A stretch of 64,000 bases of DNA from Burkholderiales bacterium (GCA_046313915.1 JBKBXX010000001.1:1040-65039), one strand, 5' to 3'; shown: positions 56,572 to 63,226, counted from the stretch's first letter. Made by a program: numbers and translations. Notes: generated by a model from the letters alone, not told the origin.

Positions 56572-57798
56572 GTGGCGGGCGAAGACTTGTCGAGACTGCG
56601 CATTGATCGCGGCAGCACGAACGCGGTGACGGTCGCAGCAAAAAGGCGACGCAATCCGCTGTGGTGGGTGGCGGCGGCCCTCACCGTTGCCGCCGCGGGC
56701 GTTTATCTGGCATTGGGTTACGGCGGAGCGGTAGAGGTGGAGGCCGCGACGGTAACCGCGAGGTATCCTTCCCAGACTTATACCGTGCTCAATGCGACAG
56801 GCTATGTCGTGGCCCAGCGCAAGGCGGCGGTGGCGTCCAAAGCGACCGGCAGGCTGGAGTGGCTGGGGGTGCGCGAAGGCAGCCGGGTGAAGCGCGGCGA
56901 GGTCGTGGCGCGCCTGGAAAGCAGGGATGTCGCAGCCACCATGGAGCAGGCGGCAGCGGGCATCAAGGTGGCGCAGGCCAATCTGGAGCAGGGACAGGCC
57001 GAACTCGCCGAGGCCGGCCGTGCGCTCGAGCGCTCGCGCGAGCTGCTCGCCGGGAAATTCGTTTCCCAGGCAGCCCACGATGCGGTGGTGTCACGCTACG
57101 AAAAGGCACAGGCCGCCGTGAGCGGACTGAGGGCGGCAATCGCGGTGGCGCAGGCCAACCATCGCGCCGCCCGGGTCGCTGTCGAACAGACCATGATCCG
57201 CGCGCCGTTCGACGGCGTGGTCCTGACCAAGAACGCCAACGTGGGGGACGTGATCACGCCGTTTTCTTCCGCTACCGGATCGCAGGCTGCAGTGGTCACC
57301 ATGGCGGACATGTCGACGCTCGAAGTCGAAGCCGACGTCTCGGAATCGAGTCTTGCCAAAGTCAGGGTCGATCAGCCCTGCGAAATCCAGCTCGACGCGC
57401 TGCCCGAGCTGCGGTTGCGCGGCGTGCTGCATCGTCTGGTGCCGACCGTCGACCGTTCCAAGGCGACCGTCATGGCGAAAATCCGCTTTGTCGACCGCGA
57501 TCCGCGCATTCTGCCGGAAATGAGCGCCAAGGTCGCTTTTCTGTCGCAGGAGGTGGCGGCCGACGAGCGTGGCGCACGCACCGTGGTGCAGGCCGCGGCG
57601 ATCGTCGCGCGCAACGGCCGCCGCGTCGTCTACGTCATCAGGGACGGCAGGGTGGCCGAAACGCCGGTCGAGACCGGACGGCCCCTGGGCGAGCTGGTCG
57701 AGGTGGTCGCAGGCGTCACGGCGGGAGACAAGGTGGTGCTGCGGCCCTCCGGCAAGCTGCGCGACGGCAGCCGGGTGGTGACGGGCGGCAAGCGATGA
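56572..57798 (+). CDS. HlyD/MacA-type periplasmic adaptor (membrane fusion protein)
   Basis: An N-terminal TM anchor, a coiled-coil hairpin (AQANLEQGQAELAEAGRALERSRELL), and IRAPFDGVVLTKNANVGDV. GTG start. Confidence 0.85.
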   Translation: MAGEDLSRLRIDRGSTNAVTVAAKRRRNPLWWVAAALTVAAAGVYLALGYGGAVEVEAATVTARYPSQTYTVLNATGYVVAQRKAAVASKATGRLEWLGVREGSRVKRGEVVARLESRDVAATMEQAAAGIKVAQANLEQGQAELAEAGRALERSRELLAGKFVSQAAHDAVVSRYEKAQAAVSGLRAAIAVAQANHRAARVAVEQTMIRAPFDGVVLTKNANVGDVITPFSSATGSQAAVVTMADMSTLEVEADVSESSLAKVRVDQPCEIQLDALPELRLRGVLHRLVPTVDRSKATVMAKIRFVDRDPRILPEMSAKVAFLSQEVAADERGARTVVQAAAIVARNGRRVVYVIRDGRVAETPVETGRPLGELVEVVAGVTAGDKVVLRPSGKLRDGSRVVTGGKR

Positions 57799-57907
57799 CA
57801 GGCGCGAAACGCAAGGCGTCAGAGGCGGGGCGTTCCGGCTGCAGCGGCCTGCGCGCCATGCCCTTTTTTTTGCGCCTTGCGCTTCGTCGCTCGAGGCGAT
57901 ATCGTTG

Positions 57908-58603
57908 ATGGACCCGACTTGCCGGCCCATCGTCGAGATCCGGAATCTCACCAAATCGTACCGGCGCGGCGGCGAAATCGTTCCCGTGCTCCACGACATC
58001 ACTTTCGACATCATGGCCGGCGATTTCGTCGCGCTGATGGGCCCTTCGGGATCGGGCAAGAGCACGCTGCTCAACCTGATCGCGGGCATCGACAAGCCCG
58101 ACAGCGGCACGCTGCTGGTCGGCGGCATCGACATCACCTCGTTGTCCGAATCCGAGCTTGCCGAATGGCGCGCGCGCAACGTCGGGTTCGTTTTCCAGTT
58201 TTACAATCTGATACCGGTGCTGACCGCCTTCGAGAACGTCGAACTGCCTTTGCTGCTGACCGGATTGCCGGGCAGGGAGCGCCGGGAGCATGTCATGGCG
58301 GCGCTCGCCATGGTCGGGCTCACTGACCGCATGGAGCACTATCCGTCGGAGCTTTCGGGCGGGCAGCAGCAGCGCGTCGCGATCGCACGCGCCGTCGTTA
58401 CCGATCCGACGCTGCTGGTGGCCGACGAACCCACCGGCGATCTTGACCGCGTGTCGGCCGAAGACGTGCTCACGCTGATCGACCGGCTCAACACCGAACT
58501 CGGCAAGACCGTCATCATGGTCACTCACGACCAGCATGCCGCGCAACGAGCGCATCGCATCCGCCACCTCGAAAAAGGAGTGCTCGGCGATGCTGCCGGA
58601 TAA
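57908..58603 (+). CDS. ABC transporter ATP-binding protein (MacB/LolD type)
   Basis: [26 protein letters not shown] and [15 protein letters not shown] at 57908; the ORF-track start at 57905 is a TTG. Confidence 0.93.
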
Positions 58604-60875: not shown

Positions 60876-62030
60876 ATGTACGAGCTGAAGCTGATTTTCA
60901 GGAATGCGCTGCGCCACAGGCTGCGCACCACCCTCACCGTGATCGGCATGGTGGTCGCGGTGCTCGCCTACGGACTGCTGCAGACCGTGGTCGATGCCTG
61001 GTATGCGGGCGCGCAGGCGGCGTCCGGCGCGCGGCTGGTGACGCGCAACGCGATCTCGCTGGTGTTTTCGCTGCCGGCGAGCTACGAGGCGCGCATCCGT
61101 GCCGTGGCCGGGGTGACCTCGGTGGTCCGTTCCAACTGGTTCGGCGGCATCTACCAGGAGCCGAAGAATTTCTTTCCACAGTTCGCGGTTTCCGACAACT
61201 ATTTCGATCTTTATCCCGATTTCGTGCTGTCCGAGGCGCAGCGCCTCGCCTATCTGCGCGATCGCAAGGGTTGTGTGGTGGGGCGTCAGCTGGCGGAGCA
61301 GTTCGGTTTCAAGGTGGGCGATGTGCTGCCGCTGCGCGGCACGCTTTATCCGGGCACTTGGGAATTCGTGATCCGCGGCATTTTCGAAGGCGCGGACGAG
61401 ACCAAGATCACGCGCCACATGCTGTTTCACTGGGATTACCTCAATGAATCACTGAAAAGGAAAACGCCGCGACTCGCCGAACAGGTCGGCGTCTATGTCG
61501 TCGGCATCGACAATCCCGAGAACGCGGCCGCTATTTCCCGCGCGATCGATGACGTCTTCAGGAACTCGCTCGCCGAAACCCTCACCGAAACCGAGCAGGC
61601 GTTCCAGCTCGGTTTCGTGGCGATGTCGAACGAGATCATCGCCGCGATCCGTCTCGTGTCATACGTGGTGATCGTGATCATCATGGCGGTGATGGCCAAC
61701 ACCATGGCGATGAGCGCGCGCGAACGCATTGCGGAGCACGCGACACTCAAGGTGCTCGGCTTCGGCCCGGCTTTCATCAGCGTGCTGGTTTTTGGCGAAT
61801 CGATCGCGATCTGCGCGATCGGCGGCGGGCTGGGGCTGCTCGCCACACCGTCTGCTGCGGCTGCCTTCCAGGCCGCCACTGGCGGCATATTCCCGGTTTT
61901 CGAGGTGTCGCCGGCGACGCTCGCCATGCAGGCGGTGTGTGCGCTGGCGGTCGCGATCCTGGCGGCGGTGGTGCCCGCGGTACGCGCTTCGCGCGTGCGT
62001 ATCGTGGAGGGACTGCGGGCCATCGGCTGA
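60876..62030 (+). CDS. ABC transporter permease, FtsX/MacB type
   Basis: An N-terminal TM helix, a large periplasmic domain, then three C-terminal TM helices with the FtsX-type ending ...VVPAVRASRVRIVEGLRAIG. Confidence 0.88.
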   Translation: MYELKLIFRNALRHRLRTTLTVIGMVVAVLAYGLLQTVVDAWYAGAQAASGARLVTRNAISLVFSLPASYEARIRAVAGVTSVVRSNWFGGIYQEPKNFFPQFAVSDNYFDLYPDFVLSEAQRLAYLRDRKGCVVGRQLAEQFGFKVGDVLPLRGTLYPGTWEFVIRGIFEGADETKITRHMLFHWDYLNESLKRKTPRLAEQVGVYVVGIDNPENAAAISRAIDDVFRNSLAETLTETEQAFQLGFVAMSNEIIAAIRLVSYVVIVIIMAVMANTMAMSARERIAEHATLKVLGFGPAFISVLVFGESIAICAIGGGLGLLATPSAAAAFQAATGGIFPVFEVSPATLAMQAVCALAVAILAAVVPAVRASRVRIVEGLRAIG

Positions 62031-62059
62031 TTGCCCGACATTCCACCCTTTATCCTGTC

Positions 62060-63226
62060 ATGGCCGTTCCGCTTTTCTATGTGGTTCGCAATCTCTGGAC
62101 CCGCCGCCTCACCAGCGCGCTGACCGTGGGCGGCCTGGCGCTGGTGGCGTACGTGTTTGCGACGGTGCTGATGCTCGACGCCGGGCTCAAGCGCACGCTG
62201 GTCACCACTGGCGAGTACGACAACGTGGTGGTATTCCGCAAAGGAGCGGAAACCGAGATCCAGAGCGGCATTTCCCGCAGCCAGGCGGGAATCATCGAGA
62301 TGCATGCCGCCATCGCCAATGGCGCGGACGGCGCGCGCCTGGTGTCGAGGGAAACGGTGGTGCTGATTTCGCTCGCCCGCCGCGGCGACAACCGCCCTTC
62401 CAACGTCGTCATCCGCGGCACTTCCGCGACGGGTATGGCGCTGAGGCCCCAGGTGAGACTGGTCGCAGGCCGGATGTTCCGTGCAGGATCGGCGGAGATC
62501 GTCGTCGGCAGCAGCATCGCCAGGCGTTTCGAAGGCACGGCGCTCGGCGGCAGGCTGCGCTTCGCGCAGCGCGAGTGGATCGTGACCGGCATTTTCGATA
62601 GCGGTGGCAGCGGCTTCGATTCCGAGATGTGGGGCGATGTCGAACAACTGATGCAGTCCTTCCGCCGCGTGGCCTATTCGGTCATGGTGGCGCGGCTGGC
62701 GGACGGCAGCCTGTTCGAGCGCTTCCGGCGGGATATCACCGCCGATCCCCGTCTCGCCAACGATGCGAAGCGCGAGCAGGCGTTCTACAGCGACCAGTCG
62801 CGGGCGCTGTCGAAATTCATCAGCATTTTCGGGCTCACGCTTTCCGCCATTTTTTCGATCGGCGCGGTGATCGGCGCGATGATCACCATGTACGCGTCGG
62901 TGGCGAACCGGGTGACCGAGATCGGCACTTTGCGCGCGCTCGGTTTCAAGCGCGCGAGCATCCTGTGGGCGTTCGTCGCGGAAGCGCTGCTGATGGGGCT
63001 GGCGGCAGGCGTGGCAGGGCTCGCGCTGGCTTCGTCGATGCAGCTGGCGTCGTTTTCCACCACCAATTTCCAGACCTTTGCCGATCTCTCGTTTCGCTTC
63101 GTCCTCACTCCGGACATCGTTCTGAAAACCCTGCTGTTCGCGCTGGCGATGGGGCTGGCCGGAGGGCTGCTGCCCGCAGTGCGCGCGGCGCGGCTCAACA
63201 TCGTCGACGCGCTGCGTGCGGCATGA
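62060..63226 (+). CDS. ABC transporter permease, FtsX/MacB type (second copy)
   Basis: Same architecture, ending ...LLPAVRAARLNIVDALRAA. The start is trimmed to MAVPLFYVVRNLW. Confidence 0.88.
   Translation: MAVPLFYVVRNLWTRRLTSALTVGGLALVAYVFATVLMLDAGLKRTLVTTGEYDNVVVFRKGAETEIQSGISRSQAGIIEMHAAIANGADGARLVSRETVVLISLARRGDNRPSNVVIRGTSATGMALRPQVRLVAGRMFRAGSAEIVVGSSIARRFEGTALGGRLRFAQREWIVTGIFDSGGSGFDSEMWGDVEQLMQSFRRVAYSVMVARLADGSLFERFRRDITADPRLANDAKREQAFYSDQSRALSKFISIFGLTLSAIFSIGAVIGAMITMYASVANRVTEIGTLRALGFKRASILWAFVAEALLMGLAAGVAGLALASSMQLASFSTTNFQTFADLSFRFVLTPDIVLKTLLFALAMGLAGGLLPAVRAARLNIVDALRAA

Follow-up and report, generated by a model that had tools for sequence, protein, structure and literature searches.

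Introduction

When the gene of a sensor kinase lies among the genes of a transporter, it may be asked whether the kinase reads the transporter, shares only its expression, or resides there for reasons of its own. We address this question for a locus in a 64,000-nucleotide (nt) stretch of DNA from a Burkholderiales bacterium (hereafter the window), in which a hybrid histidine kinase is encoded between the ATPase gene and the two permease genes (P1 and P2) of an adaptor-dependent, MacB-type ATP-binding cassette (ABC) pump; the gene set under study occupies positions 56572-63226. A preliminary description of this DNA had regarded the kinase as an integral part of the transporter operon, had likened the system to the Bce modules of Firmicutes, and had proposed a transporter-coupled phosphorelay of an architecture not known to be described. 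Judged from comparative sequence data, the arrangement is real, restricted to one clade and selected, and is a variant on the known theme of transporter-linked sensor kinases. The comparative data neither prove nor disprove an integrated, transporter-coupled phosphorelay, which stands as a hypothesis. The data show that, in general, the pump needs no kinase and the kinase family needs no pump.

Results

The kinase-embedded layout belongs to one chromosomal locus

Orthologous pumps were surveyed by scanning one genome per GTDB species with P2, followed by tblastn with all proteins of the window. The P2 scan returned 80 orthologous loci (59-80% identity; referred to here by L numbers), mostly from Burkholderiales, including Paraburkholderia, Caballeronia, Burkholderia, Cupriavidus and many metagenome-assembled genomes (MAGs), and the four-gene cassette adaptor-ATPase-P1-P2 was kept throughout. 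Counts for the junction between ATPase and P1 rest on the 75 loci that contain it. The ATPase gene directly adjoins P1 in 68 of these (median gap 27 nt), the kinase occupies the junction in L001 only, being absent from the other 74, and the remaining six hold other inserts. A search from the kinase side added a protein of 593 amino acids (aa) without an Hpt domain (P0004), which lies between ATPase and P1 in L083, L084 and L085, and a 75-79% identical kinase at the same pump position in L090.

The embedded layout is accordingly represented by four lineages (the window, L001, L090 and L083-L085), all of them at one syntenic locus in which the pump is framed by an acyl-CoA dehydrogenase and a NUDIX hydrolase gene. 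The dehydrogenase is 93% identical to that of the window in L001 and 87% in L083, and L090 contains only a 63-aa fragment of it (89% identical); the NUDIX hydrolase is 88% identical in L001 and 81% in L083-L085. Since the embedded loci share the flanks of the window, the arrangement appears confined to one locus and one clade, and on these comparisons the kinase-embedded layout is a single chromosomal locus in a small clade of uncultured betaproteobacteria. Parts of the same surroundings also occur without the kinase, in L057, which has a matching NUDIX flank (80%), and in L064, where the dehydrogenase lies nearby (83%). The preliminary description had proposed checking gene-order conservation, and had named absence of the kinase from close relatives as what would speak against its view; in the nearest clade the order is kept, at the same locus (L001, L090, L083-L085), and it is among orthologous pump loci at large, L057 included, that it is missing. 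The contig that carries L001 (CAYIRZ010000073.1) is labelled 'uncultured Streptomycetaceae bacterium'; it is syntenic with the window at 78-86% DNA identity, and is probably mis-binned or mislabelled.

The closest kinase relatives are mostly stand-alone genes and the pump is a mosaic

We checked the genomic contexts of the nine closest kinase representatives and of 15 metagenomic loci, and among these only the P0004 group and the L090 kinase lie in pumps. The other contexts include rRNA methyltransferases, patatin/NlpC-P60/DinG/HD genes, a type VI secretion system cluster, hydrolases and MFS transporters, and the homologues nearest to the window kinase (56-62% identity) stand alone among housekeeping genes. 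In a neighbor-joining (NJ) tree, the kinases of the window, L001 and L090 grouped with the stand-alone kinases L091, L092, L094 and P0002 in 100 of 100 bootstrap replicates, and the embedded L083 kinase (54% identity) fell outside this clade. This history may reflect a double capture of related kinases at one junction, or an old capture followed by relocation in some lineages. The patatin, NlpC/P60, DinG and HD neighborhood of stand-alone kinases is absent from the 64-kb window, which thus gives no trace of the donor site.

The two halves of the pump have different relatives. The adaptor is closest to those of L001 (76%), L057 (70%) and L083 (69%), and for adaptor and ATPase together L057 and L083, from the syntenic locus, are among the closest after L001 (69-79%). 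For P1 and P2, the nearest after L001 come from Paraburkholderia, Caballeronia and Cupriavidus (72-76%; P1 alone 74-76%), and L083, whose P1 is 59% identical, ranks 54th and 64th of 64 for P1 and P2, respectively. NJ trees separate the halves in the same way: with adaptor plus ATPase, the window and L001 joined L057 in 143 of 200 bootstraps and the Burkholderiaceae-type clade in 0 of 200, and with P1 plus P2 they joined L047 and the Burkholderiaceae-type clade in 200 of 200, and L083 or L057 in 0 of 200. The breakpoint of this incongruence is the position of the kinase. Because the halves are incongruent, the permease pair appears to have been replaced, and because the breakpoint falls at the kinase, the cassette can be viewed as two modules joined by a recombination and insertion hot spot.

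The inserts seen elsewhere agree with this picture. Five of the six other inserts at the ATPase-P1 junction (L051, L053, L061, L063 and L074) are an opposite-strand gene for a membrane-anchored protein within one sub-clade. The L061 insert (6616-8691, minus strand), the only one of these scanned with Pfam, carries FimV_N and TPR domains, and the opposite-strand inserts had no match in NCBIfam. Such a gene between ATPase and P1 implies that the permease pair must there have its own promoter. The P1-P2 junction holds inserts as well, namely a PAS protein in L007 (PAS only, 1689-2159), an opposite-strand receiver gene in L066 and a transposase-like open reading frame (ORF) in L079. The L066 gene is an orphan receiver (~9450-10001, minus strand) with a CHASE2 hybrid kinase nearby, and the L079 ORF (~200 aa, ~9330-9935) resembles, as judged by eye, a REP-associated or IS200-type tyrosine transposase. 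The comparative data show the ATPase-P1 junction to be a permissive, recombination-prone site.

No neighbor of the pump was conserved in more than 14 of 65 loci, which indicates a self-contained cassette without a travelling regulator. Signaling genes were seen near some related pumps: in L072, a Geobacter MAG, an NtrC-type regulator and a Cache-HAMP kinase (6514-9996) lie directly upstream of a lone P2-like permease, and in L022 a PAS hybrid kinase (12598-15696) lies 3 kb downstream.

The conserved linkage is that of kinase and permeases

The preliminary description based its view of the kinase as integral on a 14-nt overlap of the kinase start with the ATPase stop. The overlap is borne out by the sequence of the window and occurs only there. 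The spacer between ATPase and kinase is 124 nt in L001 and 255 nt, AT-rich, in L083, and in L090 it is occupied by a 3.5-kb Mla-like cassette (2428-5989) of co-directional, tightly packed genes for a STAS-MlaE protein, an MlaF-like ATPase, MlaD and an ABC_trans_aux lipoprotein. The first gene of this cassette begins at the position of the window kinase's ATG, within the last codons of the ATPase gene, and by its gene content the insert is a complete Mla/MCE-type ABC lipid transporter nested in a MacB-type operon. We considered whether the window and L001 junctions arose by deletion of an L090-like Mla cassette and did not adopt this view; L001 and L090 share only ~20 nt upstream of the kinase ATG, without detectable remnants of Mla genes, and the change may have run in either direction. 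Nor does an Mla cassette occur elsewhere in the 64-kb window.

The spacer between kinase and P1, in turn, measures 46-70 nt and is AT-rich in all four lineages. Because this spacer is constant and the ATPase-kinase junction variable, the conserved linkage is that of the kinase to the permeases rather than of the ATPase to the kinase, and translational coupling of ATPase and kinase is, across the aligned loci, not a conserved feature. Since the window kinase has no spacer of its own, it should, barring a promoter within the ATPase gene, be transcribed with adaptor and ATPase. The 66-nt spacer downstream of it (60810-60875) may be a candidate internal promoter for P1-P2; a scan for promoter and terminator consensus gave counts at or below shuffled expectation, and no promoter was called in it. 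What stands of the earlier view is that the kinase is embedded and selected in its nearest clade; to call it integral to the operon overstates a position that lacks the kinase in 74 of 75 pump loci and an overlap peculiar to the window.

The kinase is constrained in every domain

The ratio of nonsynonymous to synonymous substitution rates (dN/dS) of the kinase is 0.17 between the window and L001 or L090, within the span of the pump genes (0.09-0.23). By region, the same comparisons give 0.19-0.22 for the sensor, 0.16 for the DHp-catalytic part, 0.07 for the receiver (REC) and 0.16-0.21 for the Hpt domain. These ratios show an intact gene under purifying selection, with every domain constrained. 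Between the window and L083, dN is jointly raised in kinase, P1 and P2 (0.35-0.40), as compared with 0.14-0.24 in ATPase and adaptor.

The sensor is a six-helix membrane module of a large family

An AlphaFold2 model of the sensor module, built on 70 homologues (pLDDT 95, pTM 0.87), places an N-terminal helix at residues 9-30 and transmembrane (TM) helices at 32-53, 56-83, 87-113, 121-142, 146-165 and 170-236. The inter-helix loops of this model are only 2-7 residues long and TM6 runs uninterrupted into the DHp stalk, in agreement with the earlier prediction of six almost loop-less helices and no ectodomain; KKRR and RR stretches lie on the cytoplasmic side. Residues 1-229 matched no Pfam family even at E<=10, and the sensor had neither a sequence match in the PDB nor a significant Foldseek match, null results by which named membrane sensor domains (MASE1-n, 5TMR-LYT, 7TMR-DISM etc.) were ruled out. 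The best, non-significant fold neighbor was the membrane domain of the Pseudomonas aeruginosa diguanylate cyclase ImcA (8wcn, TMq 0.43).

A word-indexed homologue search with the sensor found a single fragment (P0001), and an exhaustive HMMER search retrieved a family of 2052 representative proteins at E<=1e-3. Among the top 70 members, the outputs include 60 histidine kinases, 36 REC, 12 Hpt, 7 GGDEF and 5 EAL domains and many PAS domains, and one of the 70 touched MASE5. Near-invariant residues are W62, R73, G105, W108, G109 and G133, together with a G-M-P-A-G-A motif in TM4. Because the family is large and joined to many output domains, the sensor appears to be a self-sufficient and generic membrane module.

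The kinase is built for a phosphorelay

All four domains of the kinase exceed their Pfam cutoffs, and H237, D529, K583 and H680 are present, so that the HisKA-HATPase-REC-Hpt architecture first proposed can be retained. The L001 and L090 kinases keep the Hpt domain, which neither the L083 kinase nor the stand-alone relatives possess. An alternative in-frame ATG exists at 58536; the start at 58590 is favored because the conserved protein of relatives begins near residue 18. Scores against the BarA, TorS and ArcB equivalog models were under cutoff, from which we take the kinase not to be an orthologue of any of these. By domain content it is a member of the hybrid-kinase phosphorelay class with an undescribed sensor family.

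The locus had been described as lacking an output response regulator, and this holds for the entire window: tblastn with three REC queries found no stand-alone receiver domain in the 64 kb, the only two receivers both lying within hybrid kinases. Likewise, no response regulator was found within ~8 kb in L083. The other receiver of the window belongs to an 899-aa hybrid histidine kinase (6624-9323, minus strand) of sCache-HAMP-HisKA-HATPase-REC-Hpt architecture, which shares 50-54% identity with the pump-embedded kinase in its catalytic and receiver domains; here, too, tblastn detected no adjacent response regulator.

The pump is a type VII ABC system of an uncharacterized subfamily

The five same-strand ORFs of the locus (Table 1) all translate cleanly, and their coordinates and common direction are as first described. 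The adaptor has a single N-terminal TM helix (residues 30-48). For the ATPase, the best NCBIfam matches are LolD, DarD, MacB and FtsE (E 1e-64 to 1e-70), all under their equivalog cutoffs. P1 and P2 both show the MacB/LolC topology of 4 TM helices, in which TM1 and TM2 flank a ~210-aa periplasmic domain. The permeases have PDB matches to MacB and YtrF, and those of P2 are distant ones to the solved MacB structures 5LIL and 5NIK. The periplasmic core domain of P2 was not called by Pfam, and is recorded for the P2 orthologue in L083. These assignments place the pump, with its adaptor, in an uncharacterized subfamily of the type VII ABC superfamily (MacB/LolCDE-like). No outer-membrane factor was found among the Pfam-scanned pump flanks (upstream to 48.7 kb, and downstream), the remaining window being unsearched for it. 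A TolC-like factor could be encoded at a distant site, as for Escherichia coli MacAB.

Further upstream lie genes for a 710-aa DUF7379 protein (48706-50838, minus strand) and an MmgE/PrpD-family protein (53611-55212, plus strand), and several large ORFs that separate the two (51539-53662) matched no Pfam family. An Rfam scan of the whole window returned no family at gathering threshold.

Table 1. Features of the pump-kinase locus and its flanks (positions in the window)
Feature	Position	Strand	Assignment and remarks
Acyl-CoA dehydrogenase	55277-56470	-	Pfam Acyl-CoA_dh_N/M/1; divergent from the pump; upstream synteny anchor
Periplasmic adaptor (membrane fusion protein)	56572-57798	+	HlyD_D23, 77 bits; TIGR01730 RND_mfp, 183 bits (cutoff 95)
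ABC ATPase, LolD/MacB/FtsE group	57908-58603	+	Pfam ABC_tran, 126 bits
ATPase/kinase junction	58574-58603	+	AAGGAG 58574-58579; kinase ATG 58590; ATPase stop TAA 58601-58603; overlap 14 nt
Hybrid histidine kinase, 739 aa	58590-60809	+	Pfam HisKA, HATPase_c, Response_reg, Hpt
Sensor module	58590-59234	+	aa 1-215; N-terminal helix and six TM helices; unnamed family
DHp and catalytic domains	59268-59951	+	HisKA aa 227-292, 82 bits; HATPase_c aa 339-454, 99 bits
Receiver domain (REC), D529	60030-60368	+	aa 481-593; Pfam 96.5 bits
Hpt domain, H680	60534-60764	+	aa 649-725; Pfam 40.8 bits
Kinase-to-P1 spacer, 66 nt	60810-60875	+	AT-rich run AAAAAATATTAAAAAAATCAAAGAG; genome ~64% GC
Permease 1 (P1), MacB/FtsX type, 384 aa	60876-62030	+	MacB_PCD, 32.6 bits (cutoff 27); FtsX, 45 bits (cutoff 25.5)
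Permease 2 (P2), MacB/FtsX type, 388 aa	62060-63226	+	FtsX, 56.6 bits (cutoff 25.5)
NUDIX hydrolase	63293-63862	-	Pfam Zn_ribbon_Nudix and NUDIX; convergent with the pump; downstream synteny anchor

Discussion

A working link between the kinase and the pump is plausible on comparative grounds, and the question is what kind of link it would be. We tentatively prefer, at slightly less than an even chance, the reading that an autonomous, intramembrane-sensing hybrid kinase was recruited between the adaptor-ATPase and the P1-P2 modules and is co-expressed with the permeases, in a small betaproteobacterial clade. In such a system the six-helix bundle alone would detect a cue that resides in the membrane, for instance a hydrophobic compound, a lipid-like one or a perturbed bilayer, and it should do so by itself because its stand-alone relatives must do so too. 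TM6 would pass the signal directly into the DHp helix, and phosphate would travel from H237 to D529 and H680, and from there to an unlinked response regulator. The tie to the pump would be one of co-expression, in which the dosage of the kinase follows that of the permeases under an envelope or lipid theme common to both, and the transport cycle of the pump need not be the stimulus. Several observations weigh against this reading. The embedded kinases alone were monophyletic in 0 of 100 NJ bootstraps, and if they trace to two independent captures, the functional tie to the pump would be more specific than mere co-expression. The joint rise of dN in kinase, P1 and P2 could likewise stem from co-adaptation among membrane proteins that interact, and a promoter in the ATPase gene or in the AT-rich spacer ahead of P1 could uncouple expression.

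A closer tie is proposed if sensing depends on the transporter in the manner of Bce modules, the 6-TM domain docking on the heterodimeric permeases, reading their ATP-driven cycling and reporting transport demand into a multi-step phosphorelay. The absence of an ectodomain, the unvarying place of the kinase directly upstream of the permease pair, the hold of purifying selection on this layout in four lineages, the possibility that one kinase subfamily was captured twice at one junction, and the parallel divergence of kinase, P1 and P2 between the window and L083 would all suit such a mechanism, for which FtsX-fold transporters that control a loop-less kinase provide a precedent (PMC11009047). 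We nevertheless find it distinctly unlikely. The 74 orthologous pumps without a kinase argue that the pump does not need one, the closest relatives of the kinase function without a co-encoded pump, and the trees of kinase and pump are incongruent; the permease pairs of the window and L083 differ in origin, yet each is accompanied by a kinase, the structural hallmarks of Bce modules are all missing, and no response regulator is placed to feed back on the pump promoter. Very unlikely in our estimate is a proteobacterial flux sensor of independent origin, in which the six-helix kinase, seated on a MacB/LolCE-like permease pair, would turn the mechanotransmission cycle into a His-Asp-His phosphorelay, and which may have been captured twice as advantageous.

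The kinase could, conversely, be an unrelated passenger that landed in, or was shuffled into, an insertion-tolerant spacer between two transcription modules and was kept for reasons independent of the pump. We rate this as somewhat unlikely, although much in the survey fits it, in that the junction accepts unrelated cargo elsewhere (opposite-strand genes and a complete Mla-like transporter among it), the P1-P2 junction likewise takes inserts (those of L007, L066 and L079), the ATPase-kinase junction differs in each lineage, L057 is the same locus without the kinase, and flanking genes are not conserved across pump loci. A passenger would, however, hardly be expected to keep its orientation and its close distance to P1 in each of the four lineages, or to persist in this layout over kinase divergence down to 54% identity, and coincidence would be improbable if separate captures gave rise to the two lineages of embedded kinases. 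We consider it highly improbable that the kinase is a classical substrate-responsive regulator, one that would detect the substrate of the pump within the membrane and switch on the operon by way of a response regulator encoded elsewhere. Membership in the operon would then create an autoregulatory loop, and signaling genes sporadically adjoin related pumps (the NtrC-type two-component system of L072; the CHASE2 kinase and REC gene of L066); against this, no response regulator or DNA-binding output is present in the window, nor within ~8 kb in L083, and the L083 kinase dispenses with the Hpt domain.

Should the kinase indeed read the pump, transporter-controlled signaling would extend from the Bce modules of Firmicutes to the type VII ABC machines of Gram-negative bacteria and to multi-step phosphorelays, and would provide a handle on what is transported by a pump family found widely among Burkholderiales. 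Without a kinase-pump link, the locus is still a clear case of a conserved four-gene transporter cassette made of two modules that meet at a hot spot. Sensors, genes on the opposite strand and a nested lipid transporter of the Mla type can enter there, and the permease pair can be swapped across it. The sensor family, being large and recovered with high confidence, and lacking a Pfam model, a solved structure or a known ligand, merits definition as a new membrane-sensor family.

Among known systems, Bce modules resemble the locus in that an FtsX-fold ABC transporter gene lies beside a kinase gene without an extracytoplasmic sensing domain. In these modules, BceB is a single 10-TM polypeptide with an extracytoplasmic domain of 200-250 aa between TM7 and TM8, the kinase has only two TM helices, with a short linker between them, the cognate regulator is co-encoded and induces the transporter promoter, and transporter and kinase, known from Firmicutes only, show tight co-evolution and near-constant co-occurrence (PMC11009047). 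The window, in contrast, has two separate 4-TM permeases of the MacB type and a periplasmic adaptor; where BceS is a classical 2-TM kinase with its BceR in the locus, the window kinase is a hybrid that combines 6 TM helices with REC and Hpt domains and lacks a regulator in the locus, so that short loops are the only trait the two kinases have in common. Instead of co-evolution, we find the kinase in ~1 of 75 orthologous pumps and incongruent trees, and the phylum is a different one. A Bce module is further defined by kinase signaling that depends on the ATP hydrolysis of the transporter and by a physical complex of the two. Identity with a Bce module was rejected, as every testable defining feature fails, and the analogy drawn in the preliminary description is left as functional speculation only.

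The pump itself compares best with type VII ABC systems (MacAB-TolC, LolCDE, YbbAP and related adaptor-dependent pumps), which it matches in topology and in its components: besides the adaptor, these are an ATPase of the LolD/MacB kind and permeases that join an FtsX domain to a periplasmic core domain. Its two different permeases, encoded by separate genes, recall LolCE. Unlike in MacB, the ATPase is not fused to a permease, the tripartite pumps of this type differ in that the locus has no outer-membrane factor gene, and scores against MacA, MacB, LolC and LolE fall far under the equivalog cutoffs. None of the characterized type VII systems is known to have a kinase gene within its operon, and a full-text literature search found no published hybrid kinase embedded in a MacB-type operon of Proteobacteria, in keeping with the earlier statement that the architecture was not known to be described. 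The sensor resembles the polytopic sensors of the MASE kind, which are likewise loop-less multi-helix membrane modules on interchangeable outputs (histidine kinase, REC/Hpt, GGDEF, EAL, PAS), and differs from them in matching no named Pfam model, the fold resemblance to ImcA being only a weak lead; we found no member of its family with a known ligand.

The closest parallels in genetic terms are BaeSR-MdtABCD, CusRS-CusCFBA and HssRS-HrtAB, which likewise pair a sensor kinase with an efflux system through genetic linkage. BaeSR, CpxAR and HssRS induce their own efflux pumps. BaeSR, CusRS and HssRS, however, are full kinase-regulator pairs in a transcription unit of their own beside the pump, whereas the window presents a lone hybrid kinase set between the ATPase and permease genes.

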